NCBI RefSeq assembly: GCF_004010195.1
Contig: NC_057755.1
Span: 2,121,803-2,185,802, forward strand
Direction of reading: 5' to 3'
DNA: 64,000 nucleotides
Origin: Chiloscyllium plagiosum
Lineage: Eukaryota
Below are positions 31,276 to 56,982 of this stretch, piece by piece. Position 1 is the stretch's first letter; the number at the start of each line of letters is the position of its first letter. Below the pieces are notes generated by a model that was given only the letters and a program-made list of their open reading frames with translations, was not told the origin of the DNA and searched no databases. A program made the translations under genes and the position numbers.

Positions 31276-31350
31276 GTAAGTCTTTTTTTCTGTGGGTTAC
31301 TCAGTGGCATCAGCATGGCAATGAGGGATGTGGGGAATGGCTGCAGATTC

Positions 31351-31850: not shown

Positions 31851-33959
31851 CCAGAAGACATCGGATGTTGTCTGAATTCTGCTGCACTGCTGTGCATGAT
31901 GGAGACATGTAACCCTTGACTTATTGAGTACTGGACTGTGATAGGACGAGTTCCCAACATGTGATATCAATGTATGCAGTTCACTTTGCCAAACGAACGC
32001 TGTGGTGTGATTCGTCAACTGACAAAAGGAAGAAACTTGTCTGTAGCTCACAGGCTCCCTGAATTTTCCAGTGATTGACTGTAATGCTGTGTACTATTGA
32101 TCCAGATCTCCAGGAATCACTGAGTGTCGGTATCACTGATCGTAGGATTGTACTGAATGGGGATCACAAACCTCAGGCTGGACCCTCTGATCGCTGTCGT
32201 CTCATGTTACTGGGAGAATGTGTCACTGTAGAATTGTACAGAGCGTAGGTAACTGCTCACATAGGAACTTCTGACCCAGTATTCTTGTTTTGCTGGGTTT
32301 CTGTAAATGCAACATTGTAAGTATGGAGCACTAACAGGTGACTCCAATCTCAAGTATTACTGAGGATGTCGAACTGGAGAACTGCAATGCACCAGGGCGA
32401 ACAACCTGAAAGGAACACTCGATTCCAGTGGCAAAGTGATTCAGTGATCATCTTTCAATTAGAATTTTACTGAGAGTGAGCTCCGAACCAAAGGGGAACA
32501 ACTAACCCCAGTGTCTACATGTTACTGGAAACATCTCTCAAAATGAAATTACACTGAGTGTGGATTTACTAACTGGAGGGGGACAAATTACCCCAGTGGT
32601 CTTGCATAAGAAGACATATCTCTGACTGTAGAATTTAATAGATTGTGCGGAATAGAATGAAATGGAATATCTGACTGCAGTGGTAACTAGGACCATAACG
32701 ATATGAAGCATGTGATTCTTCATTTATATTACTTTCCTTATTTTTCTTTGCCCACTGATGGAGCTGTCAATGTAGTTAGTTAGTCTACATTGGATTGCAA
32801 GTGGGACCTTCTTTCCAACTGGTTGCATATTTTTGATGCTAAGCTTACAAAGTGAAATGCCCAGTGAGATTTAACAGATCTGATATTTTTCGGGGTGAGA
32901 AAATGGCAGAGCAACAATGTTAAACAAAATACCCATCGACATATTACGTTGACCCGAATAATCATTTTGCTACTGATTACTCTTCCAACAAGGTTAGAAC
33001 AAGTTGTGGAACGTGGCCAGTCTAATTTATCATCTATACATTAATGAGGATGGATACGGAGCTGGAAATATTGCCACAGTTTCACATCTACTTCTGATTA
33101 GATTTCGATTAACAATTTTTGAATCTGTAATTTACGACCTACCCACAGCTTTCCAGTGATCCCTGCCTTTCACTTTGTCATGTGTGCCCTCCTTGGGAGG
33201 AAGAAGTTTTGATGAGGGCCATACATCAATCAATTTTCAGTAACATATAAAAATTAAGAAATGTTAATAGTAGTCTGGATAAAGATGTCTTTTCTAAAAA
33301 AAAATTAACTTCAGTGCCTTGCAATACTATGAGTAAGGTTAATACTTAGGTTAGTCATCATGGCATAAAATTAACAGGACAGAATACAGAACATTCAACA
33401 TGGCGCTTTGATATACCAGACAAGCCTCTCCCGTTACCAAGGGTTCGAACCCTGAATTAATATTCCACACTAATTAACTCCAGTTGTCGTCTGTACCAGT
33501 AATGGAAATACCATTTACATATTTGTACCACAAAGTCCTTTATACTCTCCATGCATCAACATACTCTATGAAATTTATACAGCTCACAAATCCAATTTCC
33601 AGAGCTGTGAGCATTTTTCTTCTTTTCGTGTCATAATGGCAAACAGTTTGACTTTACCAGGAGCCTAACCCTGTCTCTCCATGGTTGTTTTTTGTATCAT
33701 TGCCTCTGACCTTCCAACACAAACACTTGTTAACTCTGTAGTGCGCCAAGCTCAAAATAATTTCACTTGCATTTACAGAAGCACTGACTTGTGTTCTTGT
33801 ATCAGTTGTGCCTGCTTTTACAGTTAAAGTTTAGTTCCGAAAAGAAATGTTCAGCTCTTAAACATATAAATTATGAACTCATATTCACAATAAAGAGCAT
33901 ATGAAAAACTGGGGTCAATGAGATTACAGCTCTGTTTTGTTTCATCTTGAATACAAGTA

Positions 33960-36350
33960 AAGATGGTTATGGCTATTGGAGGTCAATCATCTCAGCCATC
34001 GGACATCTTTGCAGCAGTTCGTCAGATTCATAACCGAGGATTTAAAATCTGAATATTCATTAACAACGCTCAAATTGGAGATGCTTTTTTTGTAAATGCA
34101 CAATATTCAGCACCATTTACAATTCCTTAGATAAAGAAGAGATCTGTGAGATAGCATCTAGCTTGGGTCACAATTGACAAGTAACGTTCACATCCTACAA
34201 GCACCAGGGAAAGACCATCTCAAAATGAGAGAATTTACTATTCTCTCATTGGCTGACTATGACATCACCATCACTAAATACATGGCTCTCAACGATATGG
34301 GCAAACCATTGACTAGAAAATGTCCTGATCCAGCCTTGCAATTGCTGTGGCCACAGGAGTATGTCAGACACTCTGATTACTGTGGCAATCAGCTCCCCGC
34401 CTGCCTCTCCAGTCCATGTCCACCATACAGGAAGTACAGCTCAGGGCTGGGATGGAATGCTATCCATGTATCTGTCTGAGAGCAGCTCAAATACAACACT
34501 GAGGGTAACACTCACAAAGCTCCACATCGTCAGGATAATCAGCTGATTGATTAGCATGCCAAACACAACTCGGCACTCACTTCCATCACTAATGATGCGT
34601 ACGACTAGAATTGAATATAGTGTGGTATGTAAGTCACTACAAGTTCATTTTAATTTAGCAACATATTCAGAAATCTCACAGGGAATCAAATTTGTAGTGG
34701 GGTGTAGATCCTTGAAGTAGGTGGCCAAATGTCTAGCAGATAGAGTACAATGCTGATAAATGTGAAGTCATCCATCTAGGTAGGAATAATGTTAAATAGG
34801 ACTATTATTTGAACGGCAAAACATTGCAGCGTGGTGCTGTGCAGAGGGACTTGGGTGTCCTTTTGCATGAATCGCAGGAAGTTGGTGTGCAGGTGAAACT
34901 GATAATTAAGAAGGCAAATCCAATTTTATGCTTCATTGCTACAGAGATTGAGTTAAAAACAGGGAGCTTATGTTGTAGCTGTAGAGGGTACTGCGTGCAG
35001 TTTTGGTCTCCTTACATGAGCAAAGATGCACTGGCGAGGGTGCAGAGGAGGTTCACTGGACTGTTTCCAAAGTTGATGGGGTTGGCTTATGAAGGAAAGT
35101 CTGAGAAAACTGGGATTATTATCATTGGAAAATAGAAGAATGGGAGGGATCTTATAGAAACATATATATTTATAGATAAGATCGAAGCAGGGAGGAAGTT
35201 TCCACTGGTGGGTGAAACTGGGATAAGAAGGCATAGCCTCAAAATTAGTGGGAGCTGATTTAGGACTAAAATCAGGTGGACATTTTTCACCAAACCCATT
35301 GTGAATCTGTGGAATTCCTAGCCCGGTGAAGTCATTGAGACGACCTCATTGAATATGTTTAACGCGAGGAAAGAGAATATTTGAACAGAAAAGGAACTGG
35401 GATTATGGTTAAAGGTATGGTAAGGGGAGCTGAGGCCATGAAAAGATCAGCCATGATCTTATTGACCTTCCCTCAATCATAATGTCATAAATCAGAATAA
35501 TAACTGTTCACTGATAAACACACAATGTTCAGCCGCATTCATACCTCCCCAGATACTCCATGTCGCAATGCAGCATGATCCTGGCAACTTCCAGCTCTGG
35601 GCTGACAAGTGGCAATTAATGTTTGTGCCCCAGACATGCCAAAAAATTCCCACCTCCAATAAGAGATCACCTAAATAATGCCTCTTTACATTCAGTGGCT
35701 TTGCTGATACTGAATCCCCTGCGATTAACAACCTGGGAGTTACTATTGCGCTGAAAATGATCTGGACTCACAATATATATATATATTGTGACTACACGCG
35801 CAGGTCATAAGGCAAGAACACTGCAGCAACTAATGCATCGCATGACGCTCAAAGTCTCTTCACCATCTACATGGCACTCATCAGGAAAGTGATAGCTGAT
35901 TCCTCAATTACCACCCCCTTGAGATTACCATTGACCGTAAACTAAACTGGACCATCCATGTAAATGCAGTGGTGACAAGGCAGGGCAGAAGCTAGGAATA
36001 CTGCAGGGAATAACTCATTCCTGAGTTCCATCTTTCCACCGTCTGCAAGGTCCAAGTCAGGACTGTGGTGGATCACAAGAAACTTCACCCTCTCCGGGAT
36101 AAAGCAGTTCACTTGACGGTCTCCACAACTATCTTATTTCCACCACTGACTCTCAGTAGCAGCAATATGTACCAACTACTAGATGCATTGCAGAAATTCA
36201 CCAAAGTTCCTCAAACAAAACCTTCCAAACCCACAATGATCTGGAAGGACACAAACAGCAGATACATGGGATCACCATGCACGACAAATTTTCTTCCAAG
36301 TCAATCATCATTTTTGTTTGGAAATATATCATCATTCTGTAAGTATCTCG
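33960..36350 (+). mobile_element. Cluster of decayed LINE fragments: a second CR1-group family, repeated, plus a CR1 3' piece at about 34700-35465
   Basis: Recurrent GACAAGTGGCAA.TAA..TT.G.GCC, ACCATTGACC..AAACT.AACTGGAC and TTCACCATCTACA segments. The CR1 piece gives QRDLGVLLHESQ and YCVQFWSPY, with tail CAGCCATGATCT. Confidence 0.6.
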
Positions 36351-37049
36351 ACTTCACAGCTCTTCATTCGAGATAAAAAAAAAGTCAACATCTCCACCTC
36401 CTGTTAGCCCAGTCCTGAAGAATGTCTACACCCAAAACATCGACTTCTCCACCTCCTGCTGCTACCTGGCTTGCTGTGTTCTTCCAGTCTCCTGCGTGTC
36501 TCTTTGACAGCCCCTCGTAACATGATTGTAAGTCTATCTATACAGCGCATAGACAACAACAGTTCAGGAAAGCAGCCCATCAACACATTCCCAACAGCCA
36601 CTAGAGAAGAGCAATAAATGCTGGCCCACTCAACGATGCCCCTGAATGGATTAGAATTCATTAAAAATGTTGCCCAATCATGACTCATGGTGGACACTGG
36701 GTTTGAGGTTTTGTGAGTGTAAGCTGGGTGGGCGCAGGTAGTCCCTTGTTGTGAAGAGCTGAAGAGATATGCTGTTTTGAATAATCTGTCAGTCTTTCAG
36801 AGGCACGGCCTACGTGCATACCATCACACAGAAACTGAGATTCATATCCCAGATCACTCACATGTGAGATAGATAGAACCAATTTAATATGTCCTCGTAT
36901 CTGTAATATTTGGAACAAAATTAAATTATTGTCATGAAAACAATTCGGTGTGAAATATTCTCATTCAAGGGAAAAATAATCGGATCGTTTCGAAGTGCTT
37001 GGGTTAAATAATAAATTCATCCTGGAAACGATAACCAGACTCATCATTT

Positions 37050-37600
37050 GTGCGCTATGTTTTCATTAGTTATGAGTCTGAAAATTGAACTAAACAAATG
37101 GATAGATTTGTTTATTGGACAATCAAGTGGCTATGATCAAACGATTTATGATCCTTAATAATGCCATTTTGCTGTGAATGATCAATACGGTATTGAAAAC
37201 ATCTTCATAAAATTTCAAGTTTGAGTCACACACTCAAGTTTGAGTTAGTTGGGATCATGCTGACCGTCAATGTGATACACAATTCTGTTTGGTCACTGGG
37301 ATTGTGGAGCTGACATGCACTGGATATTGCTGATGAGGGATTCAATGCAAGATGCCACATAATCCATCACTTTTCTAATACCTTCAAGACGGATCTGCTT
37401 CAAAGAGGAGGATTATGAAGCTTACGTGCCACACTCGATGTCATCAACATGGACGAAATAACAAGACATGGTCATTGGCAGCTCATTTGTATAAATGGTG
37501 AAAATTGCAATGAACATTGTGCTAGTCCATTGGCCGATCTGCTCCATGCACAGCCCCCTTGTTCAAGGACGAGTCTAAATTTTCTGTTGTAAGGAAACGT
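37050..37600 (-). mobile_element. Ancient Ingi/Vingi-like LINE RT fragment
   Basis: Minus strand F.IYTNELPMTMSCYFVHVDDIECGT followed by QLHNPSDQTELCIT and QHDPN, resembling Vingi LFNLYTNDLP.T.SR.F.YADDIC..Q ... LHN..A..EL. Confidence 0.4.
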
Positions 37601-38649
37601 TTCAAGAACTGTCCAGATCCCGTTTGGGAGTTGATGGAGATATTTAGGAGTTAATCACTCTTTAGTGGAGGTGTCAGAGTGGTCCAGCAAGACTATATGT
37701 CCATTTCGATCATATTTTTGATGTATACGGCAGTGCAAAGATCATGCGTTTACTCATCAGAACATGAATTTGCTGTTTACTGTGGTTATTTAACAGAGCA
37801 ATAATCAGCTGGTTACTACAGTTACTAAATTTAGCAATAATTAGGTGTGCATTCCGATTATTGAAGTGAATAATCTACAACTGAAAAAACGTTTAGTTTG
37901 GCTTGATTTTAAGATTCAAAGAAATTAAGAGAGGTTAACTCTTTATTGTATAAATTTTAAAACTGACCTGCAGTATATTTCTCACAGACTAATCCAGCAA
38001 CAATTGAACATAGTCACGCTCACTGAATCCCACTTTCCAGACAATGTCTCAGATAACGCTCTGATCATCTCAGGGCAGGCCCTGCCCAACTAGCAGGACA
38101 GAGCCAGCAGAGGGAGCAGACACGTGGGATACACTCAATGGGGGTGGGAGTGGGGTGGGAGTGGGGTGGGGGTGGGGGTACCCAGGACGTGCTCAGCATT
38201 GATGCATGTTCCCATGAAGCCTCATCGCATCAGGTTCAACACAGACACAGCAACATTCCACTGATTATCAATTACACATGCCTTGAATTTCCCGATTTGA
38301 ACACAACATTTAAGGTGGAAAGGACAGAGAATGGACTCTGTGTGGGTGGCTTCAGTGTCCATCACCAAGACAGGCTCAGCAGCACCACTTGCTGACTGAG
38401 CTGGAACAGTGTAAACGGCATTGTCACCAATATGCCTGCCACACATTTTATAGACACTGTATCGTGAGGTCTGGTACTGTCTCTGTGTGAAATGGAGGAG
38501 ACTTCAAACATATCGACCAATTTATAACGAGGTGTCCATGAAGTTCAGTAAACCATCAGCATCAGGATTAGACCTTGTACAGGCAATCATAGACTTATCT
38601 ACCCGACATATCTGACTGGACTGTTTGAGTTAAAGGGAGAGATCGGACT

Positions 38650-39060
38650 CTGGAGTGTCAGAGGCTGAGGGAAAAATTTATAGAGGTTCATGAAATCATG
38701 AGGGGCATGGATAGAGTGAACAACCAAGGTTTCCACAGGATTACAGAGTCGAAAGCTAAAGGGCATGGATTTATACTGAGAGAGGAAAGATTTCAAAGCG
38801 ACCTGAGGGGCAATTCCTTCATGCAGAGGGTGATGTATGTGTGGAACAAAGTCATTTGGGTGAATACATAAATAGAAAGGGTTTGGAGCGATATCGGTCA
38901 GGAGCAAGCGGGTGGGACCAGTTTACTTTGGGAGTATGTTCAGCTTGGACTGTTTGGACTGTTTCCGTGCTGTATGACCCTATGGCTCTATGGTGGAAGC
39001 TGGTACAATTACAACATTGAAAAGGCATCTGGGTGAGTATATGAATAGGAAGTTTTCAGA
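38650..39060 (+). mobile_element. CR1 3' fragment
   Basis: AGAGGCTGAGGG..ATAGAGGTT.ATGAAATCATGAGGGGCATGGATAG, with tail CTATGGCTCTATG. Confidence 0.75.
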
Positions 39061-39669
39061 CTGGTTCAATGATAGGTACAACAGGACATACAAACAGCAG
39101 CACTGAAAACCAATATAGAAGGTTCTGACCTAGTGAAGATGGAAACAAGATGACTTTTGTATGGAACAAGTTATAGACAAAGCTAAGTGATCACATAACC
39201 AATGACACTCTGCTTTCTCCCCATTGTTGCTGCCAGACCTGCTATGTTCTACCTGTAATTTTTGTTTTTCCATCATATCTAAATCCTGCACGTTTACTCA
39301 TAAAAGATGGTGGACAATTAAACCACTGGGGAAGAAGACTGCTCTCCAACAACTAAGCCCTCAGTTATGGGGCAGTCCAGGACATCAGTGCAAAAGATAA
39401 AGCTGAAACATTTTCAACAATCCTCAACCAAAAATACCAAGCAGTTGATCCATTTCAGCCTGCTCGTGAGGTCCCCATGTTCACAGATCCCAGTGTCCAG
39501 CCAATTCAACTCACTCTCCCTGGTGTTATGGAATTACAGGAGGCACTGGATACTGAAAAGGTTGTGGGTTCTGACAATTTAAATATCGAAAAATTGTCAC
39601 CTGCCGAGCCAAACTGCTTTGATGCAGCAACAACACTGGCATGGACCGAGAATGAAAAATTACCCAGGC

Positions 39670-39988
39670 TTAGATTAGATTACTTACAGTGTGGAAACAG
39701 GCCCTTCGGCCCAACAAGTCCACACCGACCCGGCGAAGCGTAACCCACCCAGACCCATTCCCCTACATTTTCCCCTTCACCTAACACTACGGGCAATTTA
39801 TCATGGCCAATTCGCTTAATTTGCACATTTTTGGATTGTGGGAGGAAACCGGAGCACCTGGACGAAACCCACGCAGACACGGGGAGAATGTGCAAACTCG
39901 ACACAGTCAGTCGCCTCGGGCGGGAATTGAACCCGGGTCTCTGGCGCTGTGAGGCAACAGTGCTAACCACTGTGCCACCGTGCCACCC
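39670..39988 (-). mobile_element. HE1-like SINE, young and full-length, inserted in a LINE fragment (about 39310-40040)
   Basis: Minus strand GGGTGGCACGGTGGCACAGTGGTTAGCACTG (A box), CCGGGTTCAATTCCC (B box), core TTTGCACATTCTCCCCGTGTCTGCGTGGGTTTC, tail (AATCT)n. Confidence 0.92.
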
Positions 39989-40041
39989 ATGGTGCTTGTT
40001 TTACACGGAAAAAAAGGGCAAATCTGATGATGTCAATTAAC

Positions 40042-42149
40042 GGTTAGAGTGCCCTGTAGTAATTGGGTTTCGAGGTCCCTGTGCTTTGTGGGGTTAGAAG
40101 CCCCTTTGGTAATTGGGGTTAAAGCCCCGTCGTAATTGGGGTTAGAGAAATCTGCGTTTTGTGGTGTTAAAGGCCACTGTGTTTAGTGAGGTTAGATTGC
40201 CCTGTAGTAATTGGGGTTAGGTTTCCCTGTAGTTATTGGGATTAGAGTCCCCTGAGCGTTGTTGCACTAGGGGCCACTGGAATAATTGGTGTTAGCGTGC
40301 CCTGTATTAATTGGGGTTGGCGGCCACTTTTTGAGGGGGATAGAGGTCACTGTGCTTTGTGGGGTTCGAGGCCCCTGCAGTAATTCGGTTTAGAGCCTCT
40401 TATAGTACTTGAGGTTGTATACCCCTGTAGTAATCGTGGCTAGACGCCCCTTTGTTTTGTGGGGTTAGAACCCCCTGTATTAATTAAGGTTCGAGCCCGC
40501 TGTGTTTGTGGGGTTAGAGTGCCCTGCAGTTATTGAGGTTAGAGGCCCCTCTAGTAATTGGGGTTAGAGTGTTCTGTAGTAATTTGGGTTAGAGTGCCCT
40601 GTAGTAATTGGGGTTAGAGGCCCCTGTATTTTGTGGGGTTAGAGCCCCCTGTGTTTTTTGTGGCAAGAATGCCCTGTAGTAATTGAGGTTAGAGGCCCTG
40701 TAGTAATTGAGGTTATAGGCCACTGTAGTAATTGGGGTTAGAGGCCCCTGTAGTAATTGAGGTTAGAGGCCCCTGCGGTAATTGAGGTTAGAGGCCCCTG
40801 TGGTAATTGGGGCTAGAGTGCCCTGTATTAATTTGAGTTAGAGTGCCCTGTAGTAATTTGAGTTAGAAGCCCCCGTGTTTTTTGGGGTTAAAGGCCCCTG
40901 TAGTAATTGAGGTTAGAGGCCCCTGTAGTAATTGAGGTTAGAGGCCCCTGTGGTAATTGGGGCTAGAGTGCCCTGTAGTAATTGGGGTTAGAGTGCCCTG
41001 CAATTATTTGGGTAACAGGCCGCCGTGTGTTTTTGGGTTAAAGGCCCCTGTGTTGTCTGGGGTTAGAGGCCCCTGTAGTAATTGTGTTTAGAATCCCCTG
41101 GGTTTCGTGGGGTTAGATCCCCTGTAGTAACTGGGATTAGAGGCCCCTGTAGTAATTGGGGTTTGAGGCCCCTGTATTTTGTGGGGTTGGAGGCCCCTGT
41201 GTTTTGTGCGTTTAGAGACCCCTGTGTTTTGTGGAGCTCGATGCCCCTGTGTTTTTGGGGTTAGAGTGCCCTGGAGTAATTGGGCTTAGCGCCTCATGTC
41301 GCACTTGAGATTGTAGACCCCTGTAGTAGTTGTGGTTAGATACCCCCATGTTTTGTGGGCTGAGAGCCCCCTGTAGTAATTGGGGTTAGAGTACCCTATA
41401 GTAATTGGGGTTCGAGTGCGCTGTGGTAAGAGGGGTTAAAGGCCACGGTGTTTTGTGGAGTTTGAAGCTTCTGTGTTTTATGAGTTTAACTGCCCCAGTA
41501 GTAATTGGGGTTAGAGTCCACTGTGGTAATTAGGGTAAGAGTGCCCTGTATTAATTGGCGTTAGAGCGCCCTGTAGTAATTGTGGTTACATGCCCCTGTG
41601 GTAATTGTGGTCACAGTGCCCTGTAGTTATTAGAGTTAGAGTGCCCTGTAGTAATTGGGGTTAGAGGCCCTGTGGTAATTGGGGTTAGAGTGCCCTGTAT
41701 TAATTGGGGTTAGAGCACTCTGTAGTAATTGCAGTTACAGGCCCCTGTGGTAATTGTGGGTACAATGCTCTGTAGTTATTGGAGATAGAGTGCCCTGTCA
41801 TAATTAGTGTCAGAGGCCGCTGTAGTAATTGGGGTTAGAAGTGCTGTGTTTTGTGGGGTTAGAGGCCCCGTAGTAATTTGGGTTAGAGGCCCCTGTACTA
41901 ATTGGGGTTTGAGGCTCCTGTGTTTAGTGGTGTTAAATTGCCCCGTAGTTACTAGGGTTACAGTCCCCTGAGCGTTGTGGGGCGACGGGGCCCCGTAATA
42001 ATTGGCGTTAGAGTACCTTGTATTAATTGGGGTTAGAGTGCCCTGTAGTTATTGGGTTTAGACGCCCCTGTAGTAATTGGAGTTAGAAGCCCCTGTGCTT
42101 TGTGGAGTTAGAGGCCCCTGTAGTAATTGGGTTTAGAAGCCCCTGTAGA
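40042..42149. repeat. 2.1-kb minisatellite, 25-bp unit TAGTAATTGGGGTTAGAGGCCCCTG interspersed with variant TGTTTTGTGGGGTTAGAGGCCCCTG
   Basis: About 80 tandem copies of two alternating unit types. Confidence 0.95.
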
Positions 42150-43415
42150 CCATTAGTTTTGTGAAGATTTAAAGTAGGTAGGATAAATATGGGTGCGACC
42201 ATAGATAAGATGGAAGACAAATGTCCCCTAACAGAAATAGTAAGTCAGTATCCGAATTATGAAAATCTATTGAGGAGAATATCAGCTGCAGCTCGTCAAC
42301 AGAGGCCGCTTCCTTAACTCATCAGGAACCCTTATCCTCAATGCTGCCTGTGTTGCTAATCTCCTCAGTACTATACAACGTCCCTCTCAATTGATAATTA
42401 TTAAATGTTGTGCTCACTCCTCTGATGCTTCCGTTGTCACTAAAGGCAACAATGCTGCAGATACAGCTGCTAAGAAAGCAGCTTTTGAGCAAAAAGACAT
42501 GGTTACTCAAATGACCAACAGGAAACTAAACAGAGAATCTCCTATTTCCTCTTCTGACAACGCCACCATGCCTGACCTAGAACAAATATGGACCCATCAT
42601 GGGGACATGTCTGATGAGGAAAGGCAAAGATGGATGCACGATGGCTGTTATGTAAATAGTTACAATAAGCTTTGGTTTCACCAGTAGGACAGACGAGTCT
42701 GTTTGACTCACTTCTGCCTATTCTAGTTGATTACGTTCATCCACAAACGCATATAGGTAAGGAGGGAATGGAGGACAGACTTCTCCACACTTGGTGGAAT
42801 CCCCACCTGCAAGAAAAAGCAAAACACGCAGCTGGAAATACTCTCATTTGTCAAAAGCATAATCCCGGGAAAGGAGTAAACTATCCACCAGGTCAAACTC
42901 ACTTCCCAAGTGCACCTTTTATAACTATCCATTTCTATTTTATAAAGTTACCTCGATGCCATTGTTATAAGTATTGCTTAGTGATAATCGATGTATTTAG
43001 TAAATGGATTGAAGGATTGAAGCTTATCCCTGTACTGACAGCATAGCAACAACTACTTGTAAAATTCTGTTAAGGGAATCATACCTAGATTTGGAACACC
43101 AGTCACGGTCTCTTGTGATAACGGACCTCACTTCTGTGCCGAGTTAAGCAAGGAATTATGTAATATTTTGAATTTGTATCAAAACTTCTGTTGTAAGCTA
43201 ACCAAAGCATTGCAGTCTGATCATCAACAGGTCAAAGACGCCAATCTAGTACCAGGGAAGGAATAATGAAGAGCTCCAGTGTTTAAAGACATTAACCCTG
43301 GTGACTAAGTACTATTGAAAGAATTTAATCACGAAACATTGGGCTCCCACTGGAAAGGTCGTTGTCAAGTTCTTTTGAGAACTGAAACTGCAGTAAAGGT
43401 GCAAGGACGTTCAAC

Positions 43416-43703
43416 ATGGGCCTACAAAGGACATTGCAAGCTTGTGTCCCCCTCACAGTCTTCGTGTTAGTACTGATACAGGCATCCAATGAAAACCCAA
43501 CACAAGTACATGCGCCCAAATGTAACCAACCCATCAATGATATCTCTGACCGGCTACAACCCCAATGTGACTGTATAAATGAAACTTGTACTAATACCAT
43601 TGGAAGTCATGAATGCAGCTGCCCAGCTGAAACTCATTTACGCTATTCACATGAGACTTACCACCTGTACCTCATCGATGGAATCCTCTCCTATCTGACC
43701 TGA
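43416..43703 (+). CDS. 95-aa ORF at the pol/env boundary: signal-like peptide plus EGF-like domain (decayed)
   Basis: ATG in a strong Kozak context overlapping the end of pol. Hydrophobic VPLTVFVLVLIQA, then CDCINETCTNTIGSHECSCPAETHLRYSHETY. Confidence 0.5.
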   Translation: MGLQRTLQACVPLTVFVLVLIQASNENPTQVHAPKCNQPINDISDRLQPQCDCINETCTNTIGSHECSCPAETHLRYSHETYHLYLIDGILSYLT

Positions 43704-43745
43704 TAGAAATACTTCACATGTTTCCTGTATTCAGTAGTTACTGTA

Positions 43746-45057
43746 ATGAACAAGACAAGCTGGAAAGATGAAGAAACACCAAAAAAAAACTCTGCCTTGC
43801 CAATTCTCCTTCTGTTACTAATCGTTTCTTTATTCAAACTAAACCCCATTATCCATGTGTTATCTGCTCACTCTTCCATTATTCTGACGTACAGTGTATA
43901 AATAGGACTCACCACTTATGCAACCTCTCATTTGAGATGGAAAAAAACATTCAGTAGAAATAGCCCGTCACTATGTGAAGTGCACTAACAAACCTCAAGG
44001 ATTCGACGTTAACATTGTTCCACTGTTAGGATAATGCGTTGAAACAATTTCCAGTACCCACGACATGGGCAAGTGAAATAAAAACTATGCAAAAATATTA
44101 TCAAAGACATTGGTCTTTCTCCTGCTCTCAATCCGTTAACACACTTGGACAATCGGATGTTTGATAGCACCCACTGTTTACAAGATTCAGCTCTCGCTCT
44201 GAGTGGACTCGCCATTCACTCACAGAAGTGCACCTTTGGAACTCCGTTTAGTTTTGATTGGCGATGTGAAAACAAAGCCTACCCATCTTTACCCAGTAAC
44301 TGGTACGGACATTGCGCCCTAGCACACACCGTACCACTTTTCAACATCCACCATGAGGTACCTGAAGGAGATGATGAATGGAACACCCACCAACATGTGA
44401 ATCAGCACGGAACAAAAAATAGAGGAAAAACAATTCAGGACTTTCACAACTTCTTCCATCAACAAACCTGGTAGTCCAATTGCTGGGAGGTCTTATTCCT
44501 GGCTTGTGTGCTGAGATGGCCCAAGATCAGATAAGTGACCTTGTGTATGGCATCGAAAGATTTGCCAACTCAACTGCCCACTCTCTGAAGCTGGCGAACA
44601 AAGAGTGCGAGAATTCCTCCTTGCTAAAGAAGAATGTGCAAATTCATTCATTGGCCCGCAGTGTTGTGCCTACATCGATGATTTCTCAAAAGATATTTTG
44701 GACCACACAGATGGTATCAACAAAAGGGGTCAAGATGCAGGGAAGATACCTGACACACGATCCATGTGGATGGAGTGTTACCTGCTGGCTATAGTGGCTG
44801 TGCGGATGGATAGTGTGGGATGTACAGTACTTGATCTCATCCTAGGAATATACGTTTTCATCTGTTTATGCATGAAATGGACCATACCTTGCTTTTCGCC
44901 GAAGCCAAAGAGGAATCTGGTTAATTGACCCTTGTCGACCCATGTACCTCCATGCCCGAACGCCCATGCTGAAATCCAGTATCTTTCAGACTCTGCTCCT
45001 ACGGATGATGACTCGCCAGAGGAGGCACTTGACTTATTTAGAATGCAAACCAACTAA
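43746..45057 (+). pseudogene. env pseudogene of ERV B (SU/TM)
   Basis: MNKTSW..LPILLLLLIVSLF hydrophobic leader, SU motif DWRCENKAYPSLPSNWYGHCALAH, fusion peptide LGGLIPGL, heptad, FLLAKE..IGPQCCAYI and a TM segment. Stops and deletions, including most of the immunosuppressive domain. Confidence 0.8.
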
Positions 45058-45116
45058 ATGGACTAATTACAATTGTATAAGCGATGTAGTTGTCAAGAAA
45101 TGACAAAAGGAGGGAA

Positions 45117-45421
45117 TGCGAAAGTGCGTAGCCTTAAAACATGTCCTTAAACATTTAGACTAAAATGTAATGTTGATTTATAGAACACATTTGCTGCACT
45201 CTGGAAAATAGACATGCAGGGAGGGTAAGGCAATTAAGAACATTTGCCTTAACCCAGCTAGTTTAGCTTATAGCTCTCAGTGCTATTTTGTAACAGTGAT
45301 GGTATTAGTAAATAAAGCGGATGACTAAAATTAAACTAAATTGTCTGTAAGAAGATTTTTTTTTTCATTCAAGACCACCAAAGAGCGCGAACTCTGGGAC
45401 GAACCAAGAGAGAGTCTTACA
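45117..45421 (+). repeat. 3' LTR of ERV B
   Basis: Follows the polypurine tract AAAAGGAGGGAA (45105-45116). TG...CA ends, AATAAA at 45311-45316. No matching 5' LTR in the window, so the right end is inferred. Confidence 0.7.
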
Positions 45422-45469
45422 GGTTGAGTCCACAAGGGATTTCCTGGGCCGTCTCTAATCTGTACTTTA

Positions 45470-46005
45470 ACAGCTGCACCTGGAGTATTCTGTGCAGTTC
45501 TGGTCACCGCATTTTCGGAGGGATGTGCAAGCTTTAGAAAGTGTTCAGAGGAGATTTACTTGGATGTTGCCTGGTATGGAGGGAAGGTTTTATGTGGACA
45601 GACTAGGGGACTTGAAGCTGTTTTCGTTGGAGAAAAGGTTGAGAGGTGACTTAATTGAGACAGAAAGATAATCAGGGGATCAGATAGGCTCTCACTGTCC
45701 ACCCTTTTTCCTCAGATGGTAATGGCTAGAATGAATAGCATAACTGCAAATTGAGGGGTGATAGATAGCGGACAGATGTCAGTAGTAGTTTCTTTACTCA
45801 GAGAGTAGTAAGGGCGTGAAACACACTGCCTGCAAATGTAGTAGATGCACGACCTTTAAGGGCATTTAAATGATCATTGGATAAACATATGGATGAAAAT
45901 GATATACTGTAGGTTAGATGGGCTTCAGATTGGTTTCACAGGTCAGCGCAACATCAAGGGCCAAAGGCCTGTACTGCGCTGTAATGCTCTATGTCCTATG
46001 TTCCA
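45470..46005 (+). mobile_element. CR1 3' fragment
   Basis: CACCTGGAGTATT..GTGCAGTTCTGGTC, with tail CTCTATGTCCTATGTTCCATG. Confidence 0.85.
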
Positions 46006-47069: not shown

Positions 47070-47694
47070 TGTGAGAAATAAAACTCACAGTATAATAAAT
47101 TTCAGTCCGAGTCAGAATCTGAAACAGCGAATTTTATTGAAATCTTCTTGCAAGAAGGGGTGACCAGTAGACACTCACATTCAGGGATTGCTTTACAATT
47201 TTGTACAGTTTTAATTTTTGATCTTCATACCTATCAACCTCCCTTATTGTGTCTGCCACTACCCAGCCGCGCTCCACCCTTATTATGTCCCCCCTTCTCC
47301 AAGTTGGCGACCCTCCCCTTTGTAAGTGCTGACACAAGGGAGATTTTGCTAAACTTGAATCTTGATGTTATTTTCACTTTATCTGTTTGCTTGTAACATC
47401 TTCAATTGTTCATAGGTACATTCCATTCCTGAATATACATTTTAACAATGTGTCTTTTCTTGCCTAGTTTATGTGTATCAGCTATCTCAACTATTTTTCT
47501 GAGACTGTAAATAATTTAAACTATCATGATGAAAGAAATTATTTGCTAGAATAATTATGCACTAAAGTTAATACCCAATTATCCACAATTATACACTAAA
47601 GTTAGTAATTATTTACCTATATCCCACAATTATACACTAAAGTTAGTACGCAATTATACTTGCGGAAGTAACCCTGTGTTACTTATATCCCATA
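47070..47694 (-). repeat. 3' LTR of ERV C
   Basis: Homologous to 54301-54944. Adjacent minus-strand PPT AAAAGAAAAGAG (about 47701-47712). Minus-strand AATAAA near 47133-47138. U3 tandem repeats of AATTAT.CACTAAAGTTA. Confidence 0.9.
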
Positions 47695-47739
47695 ATTGCA
47701 CTCTTTTCTTTTTATTATCTTTTGTTATCATCTGCATCA

Positions 47740-49712
47740 TTTTTTCATATGTTGCTTCCAAACTGATCAACATTTTTCCCGAAATTTCATCTATTCTGGA
47801 TTTCTTTCTGGGGTCACTTATTCCTCTTGTTCAACAAGTAGAGCCCTGCCCCACTATTGTTCTTTAAAGGCATTCGTGTGCTAATGTTGTTTAAATCAAC
47901 CTTAGAATTAACCCCTGTGCGCAGAGTACGATACAGCATCCCAGTGCGATTATTACTCCCACCACGACGATCAAAGAGGTAAGGACTGAAACCACCACAC
48001 CCTTCTATTTTCCAAACCACGATTCTAGCCACCCCAGTGAATCATGTGCTGACTCCTGAATTTTCAGCTAGTTCTTCGGCGAGTGTTGTTAGACCTTGCA
48101 AGGCTCGAGTAATAGGCTCATCTGGGGCTGTGTTATTTGGAATATAAGTACAACAGCTCCCTCCTAACATTAGACACACTCCCTTTTTTTTTCTGCTGGG
48201 ATCATATCAAGGGCCATTCTATTCTCCTATGCCATTTGGCTGGTTGCATCAAGTTTTTCAGCTGTACCTTTAATTGTGTCTCTAGTGTGATTGATAAAAC
48301 TTTGCTGATTTTAGAAAATATAACTTACCCAATCCACATATTTGTTAACTGTTACCCACCAGAAGAGGGTCGATTCAAAGCCTTCCGTGATCTGGTTACA
48401 AGTTCTGAACTCATCGGGTACCCCTCTTGGGACTCCTATAGAGTCTAGATATACGGGATCATCAAACGATAGTGATTTGTTACTTCGGCCCGCTTCCTTT
48501 ACTATCTCTTTGTTTTCAAATGCTAGGGTGAATGGAATTGCCAATTGTACAATCACACACATGCCCCTCCAATCTGGAGGTAGGATGGGACTCAATATTT
48601 TCCCTCCACAGTACCACCACAGATCCGCTCGGGGAAGCCTTAATGCTGAGTAGTTCCCTCCCTTTTCCGTCACGTACTCGATTTCGTACATGCTTTCAGC
48701 TCCCCCAAATATCTGGACCGATCTGTTCCTCGCCTGTTTACTCACGATGTGTGATTTCCGAAAACGGCAGAAAACTTGGGGGACGTCTTTATGCCTTCCT
48801 TCTTTAAAGGAGGGAACTTTAATAGAAGGGGCATACAATCTTTATTACTCCATGTAGTAATCCTGATAAGTGCTATCATGCATGTCATGCCCCTCCTGTT
48901 TCGCTTCCACCTGAGCGGAAAGGGAATTACTTGGGCCATTGGTCTCCCAGAGGCACATGCATAACAATTGCTTGTATTCAAACTTTTCACAGTGTACTTT
49001 ATCCATTCAACCCAGGCATTTTTCTCCCCATATCCTGTTTCTACGTCAATGGTCTGTTTTATGTCCTTTACCTCTACAATTTTTATCACCTTAGGGTCAG
49101 AGTAAGGGACTTTACTATTCCTTTCTCCGATTCGGGTTCTGTCTTTCACCTGTATTTTAAAATAACATCCCCAGAAATTCTTTCGTCTGCTTTCATCTCT
49201 ATCCCAAGTATTTGGTCTAATTAGAAATGATAGGTTTCTCCCCTAAAACTGCTTCATACCATGGGGTTTTCTTTATTGTTAAATATATTGGGTTAAACCT
49301 ATTATCGAGACAGTCAAGAGCTGACCAGAAGGGGCCTCAGTATACTGTAACGAGTGGGTAATCAAGAGATCACTTCTGAGGCCTTCCTGCCTCAGCCAAT
49401 CTTTACATTCTTTATTCCAATGATATCTCTTACACTTTTTTCTCTGGGATATTTTCTTCCCGCTAGTCTTACCACATGCTGCACCCACACTTCTGGAATT
49501 CTTTCATAAAATCTAAGATGCATCTCTGTGTTACTGTACTGCCTTTGATTTATTACATCTCCATAATCCACCAGGCTGCAGGCATCTCTTTCTATGACTT
49601 GTGGATTTGTACTTTCAGGAACCGTTATCACTGATAAAGACGACATCACCATAATCTGACAGAGTCCTAAGACTAGAAAAGCTAATATAATGTACCTAAA
49701 CATTTTTCCCAT
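47740..49712 (-). pseudogene. env pseudogene of ERV C
   Basis: Signal MGKMFRYIILAFLVLGLC, NAWVEWIKYT..NCYACASGRP, PRADLWWYCGG..LPPDW.G.C..VQLAIPF, VYLDSIGVPRGVPDEF..NQI..GFES.LFWWVTVNK.VDW, and GVC.MLGGSCCTYIPNNT. Confidence 0.9.
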
Positions 49713-49879
49713 TCTATAGTGGTATGGAAGTACCGAGAGACTTAACATACAGTACTGCAGAAACTACCCCGCGCTCCGCTGCTACCATATAACAGGAGAG
49801 ACTTCACATACAGTATTGCAGAAACTATCCCACACTCACGCCGCTACCATATAATCAGATATATAAAGTCTTTTCAACT

Positions 49880-51712
49880 TAAGTTTAAGTGGTTCTTTTG
49901 TTAATTCAGCTGTTCAGACTTCTGCCTCACCTGGAGATTCCACTGACCCTTTGATCCGAGTGTAGTGAGTCCAGCCTTTCTCTACCGTTCTTATTGCTGT
50001 TTCAGTGGTTAGTAGTGCTTGGTACAGCCACTCCCAGTCTGCTTGCAATTTGGTCTCAGTCCATGTTTTGACTAGAACTCAATCCCCCGGTTGGATCGGA
50101 TTGACGGTGAATTCTGTGGGTGGAGTCTGTGCCAGCAAACTCTGTTTTCTGAGGAATGACAAAGAGGAGGACAAGCCCAGTACATACTTATTTAAAAACA
50201 GATCTTTAGTCTCCAGGGTCGGTAGTTCTCCTTTTGTTCCCAGATAGTGCAGACCAAACAATATCTCATAAGGGTACAGCCCCATATCTTTCCTTGGGGC
50301 TGTTCGCATTGGCAAAAGGGCTATAGGTAAACACTAAGTCCAAGGGAGTCTGGTTTCTACTATTAATTTGTATAACTGCTTCTTGAGCGTCTGGTTCATT
50401 CTGTCAACCATTCCTGATAAAGTGCCAAGGAGTGTGGAACTCCCAGGAGATTCCTAATCCCTCCATTACCCCCTGTTGTACCCTGGAGGTCATATTAGTT
50501 CCCTAATCTGAATCTATGCATTCCACTATACCGTATCTAGCGATTCATTGTTCAAGTATTATCTTGGACACCCCATTTGCGGTGGCCGTGGCTAAAGTGT
50601 ATGCTTCCACCCATCCAGATCGGTGATCAACCATTACCAGCATATATCTCAGTCTTCCCACTCGGGGTAATTAGGTATAATCTAATCGAATGCTCTGAAA
50701 TGGTCTTAGCCCAGGTTCTCTCCCTCCTGGGACTTGTTTCCTTAACACCTCCTTGTTTTTTGTTTACATGTTATACATCCCTCTCATATCTGTTTGGCTA
50801 TCGTATATATCCCTTTGCATCCATATTTTCTTAAGACTAAATCACACATTGCTTGCACTCCCTAGTGACTCCCCTGATGTAGGACAGCCATAATTTCTCG
50901 CATCATCATTTTATTCAACATTTCCCTCCCATCGGGTAACATCCAGTGCTCATCCGCTGTCTTTGCAGCTCCTAAATCTTTTAGTTCCTTTTCCTCCTTT
51001 GCAGTAAACAACAGGGCACCCTGAAGATCTGGAATTGCAGCTATTATGAAGGATATCACTGCTTCCTGTCGATTCAGGGTTACTGCTTTAGCTACCTCAC
51101 CGGCCAGTTTATTTCCCCTTACTTCCGGGTCATTCCCCTTCTGATGTCTGTTTATATGAACTATCGATATTTCTCTCGAAAGTAACAGAGATTCTAGCAC
51201 TTGTTTTATCAATTCCTCATTGCTAGTTCAATTTCTCTGCTATTTATCAGTCCTCTCTCTTGCCAAATTTTTCCAAAGCTATGTACCACTCCAAACGTAT
51301 AATTGGAGTCTGTATATACCGTTCCTTCTTTGTCTTCTAGGTTTCTGAGAGCTCTCTCTCGGGCATAGAGTTCACACGTTTGGGCTGACCAGCGGTTAGG
51401 CAGTCTTTCAGCCTCAATAACGCTTCCCTCTATCCCATCTACTACAGAATATCCATTGTGCCTTTTACCCCGGCACAGAAATGCAACTGGATTCAAGCAA
51501 CTGTCTGTGTCTAAAACAAGGTCATCCTGTTCTATTAAGACTGTCTCATATTTCAAGATCCGAGAGTCTGTGAGCCTTCGTCCTGCTTTCTAATTTAATA
51601 CAGTTCGTACCTGATGTGGGATGCTGACTATTAAGGCACCCCAAAAGTAAGTTTCCGACTCTCCTCTACCGATAAGCCTGTTGCTGCCACTGCCTGCACG
51701 CACTGTGGCCAG
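49880..51712 (-). pseudogene. 3' pol remnant of ERV C (connection, RNase H, integrase). RT is absent.
   Basis: WPQCVQAVAAT..VEESRKLTF, KYETVLIEQDDL, SAQTCELYA, VYTDSNY.FGVVH.FGKIW.ERG, HQGSH, RTAPRKD.GL.PYEILFG, IQPGD. Confidence 0.9.
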
Positions 51713-53681
51713 TAATGTAGCTTTCGGTTCTTTAATTTAAAATGAATTAATGCAGTAATGTTTTAAATTAACCATAAATCAATATGACAGGTCACTGAGA
51801 ATGTGTGAAGGATTCCTGCCAATTGATATTGATTCAGGCTAACACAATTGATTTATCATAAATATTAATTATTAATTATGTACATTATATAATTTAGGGT
51901 GAAAACGCAACAAGTGACGGAACCATTTTAAAAGCTGTAATTGCGCAGTTCTGTTTGTTTACCAGTCACATGTGACTTCTCATTCTGTTTCTGTAATTGC
52001 TTTGCTCGAGCAATTTCATTTTTAAGAACCTCAATAGATTTCATGGCACCATTTGCAGTTAATTCAATCCCCAATTTAGTGGCAGTATCTTATCATGAGC
52101 GCAACACTAATTCTTTGTGTCCCTCATCACAAAACTGTTGCCATAATCCAATTAATCCTTTTATTCCCGCTCCCTTCGGCTTAAAATTTAAGGATGACCT
52201 GGTTGCCCCCCGTATCGACTAGGAAAACTACGTCCTCTTTGTAAGGGCCCGCCTTTAAATTTATCAAGGGTTCAGGTGGGTCCCCGGGGGCAGGAACCAC
52301 TGACACCCCTATTCTTCGTCAAGGTTCATAAATGGTAGTGCCTTTGCTTCCTTTTTCAGATCTGGACACACTCTCTTAAAGTGACCTGCCTTTCCACAGA
52401 AATAACGTCCCACCTGTGGGGATTTCCACTTTGATACTTGTTCCTGTCTACCAGACCCCTTAACATCTCCTCCCCGAATCTCTTCCCCTCCCTTTATTTT
52501 CAACATGCTGCCCACCACCATTCTGGTTTCCTTCTCCTTTTAGGTTTGTCCTTTTCTTTATTACCTCATCAACTGTGGCTATCATTATTTTTGCCTTTCG
52601 TTTATGCTATTCAGGTTACGTTCCCAGATCAATTGCTGAGCCGATTTAACAAATTGAACAGCTTTAGGGCCACCTAATGGCCATTCCTCATAACCCAATG
52701 TTTTGTTTAGATCTTGATTTTTTTTTTCAAAGAAATATTGCGAAATTTCTTGCTCCCTATAACCTCAAATACCAGGAGCCTCTTTCTCCTTGTAATCCCA
52801 AATACAATTTATCAATTTATGCTTGTCTAACTTTAAAGCCTGTTCCTAACTATACATTTTGGAATTTTACTTGTAAAAATATATTTATATATTATAAATT
52901 CATTTATTGTGTTTAATATTTAAAATGTAAAATGCATGCAGTTCCCAACTTTGAAATCCGCTATAATTACCCGGTCTTACTCCTTTGATTTAAATCCAAA
53001 ATTAGTTTTCTTAAGTCGTCCTGTCCAGTCATTGCTCGAAAACGATGCTATTGGTCGTGAAATAATCGGAGCTGCCTTTAAAAGGATTTGTCTATTCAAG
53101 TTAAAAAAAGGACTTCTAATGCATGAATAATGGCCGAATCCAAGGTCACCGATATTAACCTTAGGAATTTTTTAAAAAAAAAATTACAATCCAATGTTGA
53201 ACTGAGAATTCAACTGTCCTCCATAAATCGCTTTTATGTAAGGATAAAAGTGATTAGTTAGAAACTGATAGTAAGGCAGTCACGACGTGTAAAAAGAACA
53301 GGAGTTAACATTTTATTTCATAATCTGTAAAATCCTTAACCTGAAAAGAAATCATGTTTAAATTTCCACAATAGAAATCAGATTCAAAACAGTCCCAGAT
53401 CTCAAGCTCCAGGGAACAAAGCACAAACATTCAATCACCAACAAACAAATGTGCAATTAAACCGAATCACAACGGGTTAAACATTTTATTAGCTGTACAG
53501 CTCTTTTCTCTCTCAGACACACACACACACACACGCACAGACACCGTATCTCACAGACACTTTGAGTTTCCCGCAACGACTCCTCGAGCTTTTGATTTTT
53601 TATTTTTCTGGATGTCTGGCCATGATTTAGTTACGAAGTGTACCCTCAATAACCCTTCAGCTACTAGCCCTTCTGACACGA

Positions 53682-53996
53682 AGATATTTTTCTTTTCCTC
53701 CTGACTCTAAAGCTGTTTTCCATTGACATATAATTTCAAATATTTACAAACCCAGTCTTCGCCCTACCCGTACTTTGGCAAGAAGACGCAGGACGAAGAG
53801 TGGATTCCTCAGTGCATACAAAGCAGCAATATTTAATCATCTTTTTCCTATCATTTTCCTTTGTACAAGTATTATTTTTCCAATTCCACAACATCCTGCC
53901 CAACGGATGTTTGAGAAATGTTGCCAGGAACCCCGCCTCCATTTCCATTTTCTTTTTCCCGGAGGCTGTTTTTTCTTTACCCGAGGCACAGCCCAT
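53682..53996 (-). pseudogene. gag 5' (matrix) remnant of ERV C
   Basis: MGCASGK (myristoylation-type start), PLGRMLWNW..KKMIKYCCFV, PKYG..EDWVC. Confidence 0.8.
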
Positions 53997-54278
53997 ACTG
54001 AGTTCCTTCATTAGTCCCTTGTTAACTACTGGAACTCAATCCCGGCCACCAAGGCAGTACTTAAAAATTAATTTTCTTATCTTGCTCCATGCACAGTGTT
54101 GCCTGGCTCCCTGTGCCTACTTACAACCTTTCGCCTGGTGCAGATAGACTCTCATCGGATCTCGATCAGTCAACCAGAAGGGGAAACCCACCACCGAGGA
54201 ACACGGGATCGTTCTAAACGGAACGGGACACATCTGCCCAGCCATCGATGGTGCTTTACCCTGCCGGTGATGAAGGGC

Positions 54279-54297
54279 ATCCCGGACGAAGCACCCA
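54279..54297 (-). promoter_or_regulatory. Primer-binding site, tRNA-Pro
   Basis: Minus strand TGGGTGCTTCGTCCGGGAT versus canonical TGGGGGCTCGTCCGGGAT, 3 nt from the LTR end. Confidence 0.85.
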
Positions 54298-54300
54298 AAT

Positions 54301-54944
54301 TGTGAGAAATAAAAGTCACAGTATAATAAATTTCAATCCGAGTCAAAATCTGAAGTAACGAATTTTGTTGAAACCTTCTTGAAAGAAGGGGTGACCAGTG
54401 GGCACACACATTCAGGGATTGCTTTACTATTTTACAGTTTTAAGTTTTAGTACTCCACGTTTACCTCATAGGTCTTCACACCTATCAATCTCCCTTATTG
54501 TGTTCTGCCACTACTCAGCTGCGCTCCGCCCTTATTACTCCCCCCTTCTCCAAGTTGGCGACCCTCCGCTTTGTAAGTGGTGACATAAGGGAAATTTTTG
54601 CTAAACTTGGATCTTGATGTTCGTTTCATTTTAGCTGTTTGCTTGTAATATCTTCTATTGTTCATAGGTACATTCCATTCCTGAATATACATTTTAACAA
54701 TGTTTCTTTTCTTGCCTAGTTTATGCGTTTCAGCTATCTCAGCTATTTAGCTAAGACTGTAAATATTTAAGCTTTCATGATGAAAGAAATTATTTGCTCG
54801 AATAATTATGCACTAAAGTTAGTACCCAATTATCCACAATTATGCACTAAAGTTAGTAATTATTTACCTATATCCCACAATTACACACTAAAGTTAGTAC
54901 TCAATTATACTTGCAGAAGTAACACTATTTTACTATATCCCACA
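54301..54944 (-). repeat. 5' LTR of ERV C
   Basis: TG...CA termini, adjacent to the PBS, homologous to 47070-47694. Confidence 0.9.
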
Positions 54945-55468
54945 CTCTCCAGCCACAGAAGAGGTACCAGAGGACTGGAGGAGAGCTGAGGTGTTTCCAA
55001 TTTTCAAGAGGGTAGATCAGATACACCAGGAGTAATAGAGCAGTGAGTGCCTCATCGGTGTTAGAGAATGTATTGGAGAAAACTCTGAAGGAGATAATTA
55101 ATGTCCACTTGGGAAAGCATAGGTCAACTAGGGCTAGTCAATATGGCCTGCTCAGAGGAAAGTAATGCCTAACAAATCTGCTGGTATTTTTCATGGAGAT
55201 TACCAGGTCTCGAGATAAGGGTAGGTAAATTGATATCGTTTATGTGGAGTTCAATGAAGCCTTTGACAATTCCCCACATTGGAGATTGATAATTAATGTA
55301 AAAACACATGGCATCCAGGTTAAATTGGTAAGTTGGCTCCAATATTGGCCCATTAGAGGAGATAGGAGATTTTGGCAGAAGGCTAGTTGTGCAGTTGATG
55401 CCCAGTGGAGTACCACAGGGATCAGTGCCAGATGCCTTCTTGATTGTGATATTCATAAATGATATTGT

Positions 55469-55512
<44 letters not shown>

Positions 55513-56975: not shown

Positions 56976-56982
56976 TATAAAA
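56976..56982 (+). promoter_or_regulatory. Candidate TATA box of GPCR copy 2
   Basis: TATAAAA about 100 nt upstream of the ATG at 57084, positionally conserved with copy 1. Confidence 0.45.

Follow-up and report, generated by a model that had tools for sequence, protein, structure and literature searches.

An old endogenous retrovirus family of Chiloscyllium plagiosum with EGF-type domains and a putative attachment arm at the N-terminus of its Env protein

An EGF-like motif at the pol-env border of an endogenous retrovirus (ERV) in Chiloscyllium plagiosum is the front of the Env protein; it does not represent a gene of its own located between the two. The initial annotation of the region caught only a remnant of this structure, and the fuller form found in other copies of the family has a stalk and two EGF domains. 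Judged by its sequence, the family is an old, now defective class I ERV, and its Env is a real, unusual variant of the gamma type. We propose that the stalk and the EGF domains acted as an accessory attachment arm at the N-terminus of Env rather than as the fusion trigger, and that this arm likely came from a host surface protein, a reading to which we would assign a probability of roughly 55%.

The window, that is, the whole stretch of 64,000 nucleotides that was analysed, corresponds to positions 2,121,803-2,185,802 of the forward strand of NC_057755.1 in a host assembly of 3.56 Gb, and the features of the provirus it contains are listed in Table 1.

Table 1. Features of the provirus in the window (positions are those of the window)
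Feature	Position	Strand	Evidence or remark
Remnant of the 5' gag region	42157..42293	+	blastn against long copy L068
pol remnant (RNase H, integrase zinc finger, core, C-terminal domain)	42297..43470	+	Pfam RNase_H, Integrase_H2C2, rve, weak matches
Start of env (ATG and signal peptide), overlapping the 3' end of pol	43416..43487	+	ATG in 40/48 covering copies; hydrophobic core at residues 9-21
N-terminal Cys-rich module, first part	43488..43577	+	aligns with long copies up to L061 6514
In-frame junction common to the whole short subfamily	43578..43580	+	~181 codons of the long form missing
EGF2 (calcium-type), second half	43581..43652	+	Pfam EGF_CA E 3e-5; host-EGF HMM; between-clade dN/dS 0.13
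Breakpoint of the frame-shifting ~218-nt deletion private to the window copy	43643..43652	+	comparison with other short copies
Off-frame tail and TGA-TAG (43701-43706), outside the family protein	43653..43706	+	
SU core	43746..43900	+	CXXC (C-V-I-C) at 43856-43867 in the env frame
Remaining SU, interrupted by stops and frameshifts, to basic cleavage-site region (44421-44438)	43901..44438	+	
Gamma-type TM remnant (fusion peptide region, HR1/ISD, CX6CC region, membrane anchor, tail), broken	44439..45057	+	
Polypurine tract (45105) and 3' LTR	45105..45472	+	

The env segment of the window belongs to a decayed provirus, in which it is placed at the end of pol, with remnants of RNase H and integrase on its 5' side and the CXXC motif, TM (the CC of its CX6CC region is found at 44662-44667), a polypurine tract and a 3' LTR on its 3' side. 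Most of gag, pro and RT is missing, the pol remnant contains stops as well as an internal deletion at 43194-43204, and a search with the 3' LTR against window positions 30000-43000 did not reveal a 5' LTR. The expected site of the 5' LTR is occupied by a 25-bp tandem array (40043-42150), which adjoins the gag remnant, and a further 25-bp tandem array is located at 58894-59443. The window also contains other elements. A second ERV with an LTR pair that is 88% identical over 647 nt is present on the minus strand at 47070-54942, and its env-like open stretches (48314-49242) had no Pfam match. A third LTR element (15755-17077) retains RNase H-like and integrase zinc-finger remnants, both above the Pfam cut-off. 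A long inverted duplication with 67-81% identity is formed by 4669-9934 and 54946-63736 and includes a 7-TM-like stretch on the minus strand (5671-6060), for which no Pfam match was obtained at E 0.01. Finally, a short interspersed repeat is present as palindromic copies, arranged head to head and 74-93% self-complementary, at 3017-3174, 26430-26683 and 28419-28662.

The initial annotation described an open reading frame of 95 codons with a signal-like stretch and an EGF motif. The start codon ATG 43416, which overlaps the end of pol and has an A at -3 and a G at +4, and the 95 codons up to the TGA-TAG double stop at 43701-43706 are found where they had been placed, and the hydrophobic residues 9-21 of the signal-like stretch have a mean Kyte-Doolittle value of 2.9. 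The EGF motif is likewise above chance, but only as a partial domain: the 95-amino acid sequence matches positions 10-32 of the 43 positions of the Pfam EGF_CA model with 24.6 bits, below the curated cut-off of 27 bits, and scores 14.2 bits against an HMM built from 31 host EGF units, a value reached by 0/300 shuffled sequences. As an independent unit, the reading frame does not hold up against other copies that are open through this region. The deletion of ~218 nt, which is private to the window copy, takes out the sixth Cys residue and most of the following 4-Cys domain; the resulting frameshift falls immediately ahead of this Cys, so that the residues after position ~79 and the two stops are an off-frame tail. 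At the same breakpoint, 12 of the 28 measurable short copies contain 218 nt of extra DNA, and in 27 of the 28 the length is 200-229 nt. The sixth Cys had been expected at the Tyr codon of an E-T-Y motif; it is instead found at the codon of the window's breakpoint, which encodes Cys in 47/55 covering copies (33/39 short and 14/16 long). Similarly, a Gly residue predicted at a P-A-E position is absent from all rows of alignment A1 covering this position (0/12). The TGA of the double stop is present in 35/42 copies, but the frame there differs from that of env.

When the window is taken alone, it reads as if a small secreted EGF protein were encoded between pol and env, with env starting from ATG 43746, which was thought to open a second hydrophobic leader. 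We regard such a separate protein as highly improbable. While ATG 43746 is in the same frame in the window, it is an ATG in only 4/52 covering copies, and the hydrophobicity of the supposed leader comes from a +1 reading of the SU core, which is closed by a stop in 42/43 copies. The two stops are made by the private deletion, and five natural copies (L014, L023, L061, L065 and L063) are open through the region, contradicting an accessory secreted protein. A pyrimidine tract and CAG at 43441-43458, noted earlier as a potential splice acceptor, is present as described, but falls 3' of the ATG, among the codons of the signal peptide; the CAG at 43458 is kept in 35/49 copies, which is explained by the double coding of this stretch for pol and env.

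The genome was searched with DNA and protein queries. The DNA search gave at least 40 loci (40 of 130 candidates were scored and 40/40 matched) and the protein search at least 150 matches from 147 of 323 candidates, which is a lower bound. Sixty non-overlapping loci were analysed, 44 of a short form, including the window copy, and 16 of a long form; this sample is biased toward the queries used and includes a few near-duplicates, for example L056/L058 and L016/L059. The fuller env copies were found via matches split by ~540 nt, and with the first EGF domain (EGF1) as query, 23 loci were obtained at E <= 3.4e-6 together with one partial locus. Within the env frame, stops occupy 43/6718 codons in the short and 34/4872 codons in the long form, corresponding to 0.6-0.7%, as compared with 6.4-7.9% in the other two frames. 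There is no intact env among the family copies examined, but overlapping natural open reading frames, taken as they are and without joining, together span the entire domain order of the long form: L061 is open for 357 aa from the signal to the region after the EGF domains, L065 for 368 aa from the Cys module to beyond CXXC, L063 for 340 aa from EGF1 to late SU, and L028, L023 and L009 for 202, 211 and 220 aa, respectively, from late SU to TM. In the short form, L014 (259 aa, up to CXXC) and L023 (232 aa) are open from the signal through the EGF into the SU core. The suggestion that the EGF module is an N-terminal addition to Env is thus supported by the copies open from signal to SU, by the low density of in-frame stops and by purifying selection (see below). 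The window form turned out to be a remnant of the fuller form with two EGF domains. Contigs of organisms B and C cover both the long and the short form, including the short junction, and the family therefore predates the split of these organisms or infected them too. In two single-cell poly(A) runs from one sample, of which 2% and 6% were sampled, no reads over the EGF region were found, which is no test of expression or of splicing at 43458; the same runs contained a few reads, 82-95% alike, over late env and the LTR of the family.

The env of the 16 long loci encodes, in this order, a signal peptide, a Cys-rich module, a Thr-rich stalk, EGF1, EGF2 and a 4-Cys domain, which are followed by the CXXC-containing SU core, a putative basic cleavage region and a gamma-type TM. 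The N-terminal module contains eight Cys residues and is rich in N-glycosylation sequons. In stretches of 303-368 aa, 8-11 such sequons are found, and the stalk is 67-69 aa long with 23-25 Thr residues, approximately one third of the total. EGF1 has six Cys residues in EGF spacing and reaches 35 bits for Pfam EGF_3, above the cut-off of 28.5; this model is matched by 7/11 members of alignment A2. EGF2 of long copies has an acidic start (D-x-D/N-E-C) and a C-x-N-x-x-G-S-Y motif and scores 15-28 bits on the host-EGF HMM, while its Pfam EGF_CA match stays below the curated cut-off (best E 1e-4). The Cys residues of EGF1 are kept in 10-13 of 14-16 long copies per position, and most long copies retain all 6+6 Cys residues of the two domains, each position being occupied in 10-15 of 14-16 copies. 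For most EGF domains of long copies, only 0-1 of 300 shuffled sequences scored as high on the host-EGF HMM. The same test was applied to 12 of 13 short copies, leaving out L023, and for 3/12 short hybrids, 17-27 of 300 shuffles scored as high; one EGF2 row (L062:5895) is a pattern mis-match. The N-terminal Cys module was also considered as a third EGF domain on the basis of weak EGF_STAB1-2 matches (E 0.07), but this was not supported, because in 5/5 copies the score was reached by 14-84 of 300 shuffles. The best PDB match for the EGF pair was EGF1-2 of uromodulin (E 2e-5), and a search of the Atlas pointed to SUSD1 with a feature score of 0.81, which is a lead only. The part comprising the post-EGF region and SU gave a single Atlas match (0.75) that was no lead, and for the post-EGF domain, where a uromodulin-like capture would have ZP-N, Pfam, the PDB and the Atlas returned no match. 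AlphaFold models of L061 (11 rows) and L014 (21 rows) had pLDDT values of 31.5 and 31.3, respectively, and these low-confidence models, which lend no support to the EGF arm, show beta strands only in the post-EGF domain.

One might argue that the likeness to EGF domains reflects convergent Cys spacing in a viral glycoprotein instead of capture, as no donor and no close protein homologue were found and EGF_CA always remains below its curated cut-off. This seems very unlikely to us, since an EGF followed by an EGF_CA domain, the linker between them, and the G-Y-x-G-N-G and N-x-x-G-S-Y motifs are all features of uromodulin-type proteins, and both the EGF_3 score and the shuffle controls of the long copies speak against it.

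In the short form, the stalk and EGF1 are absent from 44/44 loci, and 43/44 resume at L061 7056-7058 (within 3 nt). The loss of ~181 codons is in frame and comprises the rest of the Cys module, the Thr-rich stalk, EGF1 and the first half of EGF2. The junction falls between two runs of Cys-x-Asn codons that resemble each other and fuses the C-x-C motif of the Cys module to the third Cys of EGF2, so that the "EGF" of the window reads as a hybrid, with a first half from the Cys module and a second half from EGF2. The N-terminal half of EGF2, with the acidic residues of the calcium site and the first two Cys residues, has been deleted in the short clade, and the window copy in addition lacks the sixth Cys. 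As the junction bisects EGF2, a recognisable domain, whose acidic residues at the calcium site are thereby lost, a deletion in the long form is simpler to assume than an insertion. This favours the derivation of the short from the long form, a direction that we infer from the junction, since the tree has no outgroup.

A tree of late SU and TM was calculated for 40 of the 60 copies, the others covering < 70% of the region. The long and short copies form the two sides of one branch with 100/100 support, and each clade is star-like with end branches of ~0.08; as the tree is midpoint-rooted, it does not give the direction of change. Selection was assessed from pairwise Nei-Gojobori distances, taken as between-clade minus within-clade values with bootstrap intervals; of the stalk and the EGF domains, the test covered the second half of EGF2. 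The dN/dS check proposed by the initial annotation gave 0.13 (0.01-0.66; 26 codons) for the EGF2 half, equal to the value of TM (0.13, 0.07-0.21), and 0.28 (0.13-0.65) for the post-EGF 4-Cys domain. Values of 0.38 and 0.31 were obtained for the signal/N-terminus and SU-a, respectively, with intervals that include 1. Shifted-frame controls were 0.5-1.7 (TM 1.2-1.4), except for one of the controls for the EGF2 half (0.26, 0.05-1.21) and for the combined hybrid (0.35), and within-clade values of 0.4-0.8 are as expected for mostly neutral decay with the Nei-Gojobori approach. Read from these substitutions, the analysis shows that the EGF belonged to a working Env on the branch between the clades, although the signal comes from this one branch and may predate the deletion. 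LTR pairs, several of them partial, were found for 8 of 36 elements and are 77-92% identical, and the bursts of the long and the short form are both old. The two clades differ in their LTR U3 sequences, the short clade having its own LTR type. Many short copies lack pro/RT: 5/20 share one breakpoint, and 2/20 clearly keep RT. In each clade, there is a sub-lineage with a shared pro/RT deletion (L088, L092, L095, L097 and L098; L064, L068 and L076), and defective elements were therefore copied in trans.

The RT and integrase of the family are, by similarity, closest to those of gamma/epsilon retroviruses, and the assignment stops at this level. The RT piece matched p80 RT/RNase H chains, which we take to be those of MLV/XMRV, with E 5e-21, followed by the next group at E 2e-9, and in copy L002 both Pfam MLVIN_C and rve are above the cut-off. 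The hallmarks of a gamma-type Env are widespread in both forms: CXXC is found in SU of 27/34 short and 10/16 long copies, CX6CC in TM of 23/29 short and 6/10 long copies, and an ISD-like pattern in 17/25 short and 6/7 long copies. The SU/TM cleavage site could be parsed in 27 of 60 copies; it is K/R-x-K/R-R in seven, K/R-x-K/R followed by Q, W or a stop in 13, and different in the other seven. Pfam TLV_coat and Ebola-like_HR1-HR2 were matched by copies L009 and L023, both below cut-off, and in the PDB, TM (L009:3-662) was by far most similar to GP2 chains of filoviruses and reptarenaviruses (E 2e-14), followed by syncytin (E 2e-5) and MLV p15E (E 5e-3). Sequence searches gave no match to an MLV-like receptor-binding domain in the N-terminal half of SU.

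What might the arm have done? In mucin-EGF surface proteins, tandem EGF domains serve as stiff spacers and Thr-rich stalks as O-glycosylated extensions, while binding is done by a domain at the tip. By analogy, the EGF pair of the long form might be a stiff spacer and the stalk a glycosylated extension, which would keep the N-terminal Cys module at a distance from the virion. Such an arm would aid attachment, with shielding as a side effect, and the fusion trigger would reside in the SU core, which is retained by both clades. The short lineage would then have lost most of the arm via a template-switch deletion between the similar Cys-x-Asn motifs, and the window copy would have decayed further thereafter. 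As the short lineage lost most of the arm and yet left at least 44 loci, the arm was presumably dispensable; however, since many short copies lack pro/RT, it is possible that this lineage was spread in trans and did not rely on an Env of its own, and the argument that the arm was dispensable for entry is weaker for it. We also consider it possible, rather than probable, that a host mucin-EGF piece was built into Env as a cell-binding module and was afterwards recombined in register into a functional hybrid EGF; the family would then be a natural example of receptor use acquired through the capture of a host domain within Env.

Alternatively, the EGF-bearing head could have been the primary receptor-binding domain, in which case the short lineage would have changed or lost its receptor use and spread by complementation. 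According to the available text of PMC9967133 (section 3.2), the receptor-binding domains of gamma-type Envs are located in the N-terminal half of SU; moreover, the deletion preserves the frame and an even number of Cys residues (eight), the remaining half-EGF is conserved, and complementation is permitted by the many pro/RT-defective short copies. We nevertheless judge this explanation unlikely, since the 4-Cys domain (~85 aa) and the SU core (~250 aa) remain in both forms and could be the receptor-binding domain, and since the short clade has its own LTR type and some RT-bearing members, which suggests that it replicated independently. It is also rather improbable, in our view, that the stalk and the EGF domains were only a glycan shield or a tolerated host-derived passenger without a ligand. 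The density of sequons, the Thr content of the stalk and the loss of the arm in the larger of the sampled clades would fit such a role, and large insertions that preserve the frame are tolerated in the proline-rich region of SU in gamma-type Envs (PMC9967133, section 3.3). Against this, the EGF2 half was under purifying selection as strong as that on TM, and most long copies retain the 6+6 Cys residues. Our preferred reading, an accessory attachment arm, concerns a family that is extinct in this genome, and the role of the arm is deduced from its sequence features.

The arm was likely captured from a host surface protein, which agrees with the earlier suggestion of a captured host EGF module as far as the host origin is concerned, but the donor gene was not found. 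In the genome, the best non-family match was E 0.3 for EGF1 (38/38 candidates scored) and E 0.01 for the EGF pair, and there was no identifiable non-family match for the Cys module. A host EGF-array gene at G000:C9:28.62 Mb was considered as a close donor and dismissed, as it shows only 41-45% identity at E >= 0.01. This gene (28.62-28.64 Mb; L071:7746-9899, L072:4026-6722, L073:8208-8849) is of note in itself, as it contains two giant intron-free stretches of tandem calcium-type EGF domains, one of at least 718 aa and the other of at least 899 aa, with NIDO and AMOP domains behind them, in a mucin-4/fibrillin-like layout. No protein homologues were obtained at E <= 0.001 for the L014 and L061 open reading frames or for TM alignment A4, which is weak evidence as only longer proteins were covered; a search of representative proteins with L014 gave two generic EGF-array proteins, and a scan of IMG/VR found no relative. 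As the arm is intron-less and contains a uromodulin/SUSD1-type pair, its likely origin is a piece of host mRNA that would have been captured during reverse transcription.

Judged by titles and the beginnings of abstracts, outside subscription journals, no natural EGF-bearing Env was found in the literature. The word "EGF" occurs 0 times in the main text, as available, of PMC4977317, PMC9967133, bioRxiv 10.1101/2021.11.23.469661, PMC4299795, PMC8672886 and PMC10536682, the word "mucin" occurs 0 times in that of bioRxiv 10.1101/2021.11.23.469661 and PMC9967133, and the available part of PMC3652111 describes engineered EGF display only. The anamniote Env survey of fish genomes may list the family in its supplements. 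If the arm bound cells, the capture of host domains would be a natural route by which a retroviral Env gains modules for attachment, and TM-centred surveys would understate how modular the surface subunits of fish ERVs are. Furthermore, the pair of long and short forms is a natural deletion experiment on the parts of SU that are needed.

Based on the available text of bioRxiv 10.1101/2021.11.23.469661 and PMC9967133, the family resembles the gamma-type Envs of fish and amphibian class I ERVs in its short signal, SU CXXC, putative basic cleavage region, HR1/ISD, CX6CC and anchor, and differs from them in the N-terminus of SU, which consists of the Cys module, the Thr-rich stalk and two EGF-type domains. 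The capture of host genes by ERVs has precedents, at least in the accessible parts of the respective papers: CrocERV29 carries KIT-ligand between pol and env and CrocERV31 has nectin3 in place of env (PMC4299795), an amphibian ERV has captured OGFr (bioRxiv 10.1101/2021.11.23.469661), and fish ERVs contain CNPase and macro-domain open reading frames (PMC4977317). With these elements, the family shares an intron-less, host-type extracellular sequence near the pol-env border that has been under purifying selection. Whereas the captures described there are separate open reading frames or replace env and have identified donors, the EGF domains and the mucin-like stalk form part of the reading frame of a complete Env, where selection maintained them during replication, and their donor was not found. 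Like the N-terminal pair of uromodulin and SUSD1, the arm begins with C-x-x-C-H-x-x-A-x-C and has an EGF followed by an EGF_CA domain; unlike these proteins, it has no match to a third EGF, a sushi or a ZP domain, the similarity is too low to name the donor, and the acidic residues of the calcium site are missing from the short form. Filovirus GP carries a mucin-like domain and is not known to contain EGF domains. Its similarity to the family, a retrovirus with an MLV-like RT, is confined to TM, but both appear to combine a gamma-type fusion subunit with a Ser/Thr-rich region of the surface subunit that is dispensable for fusion.
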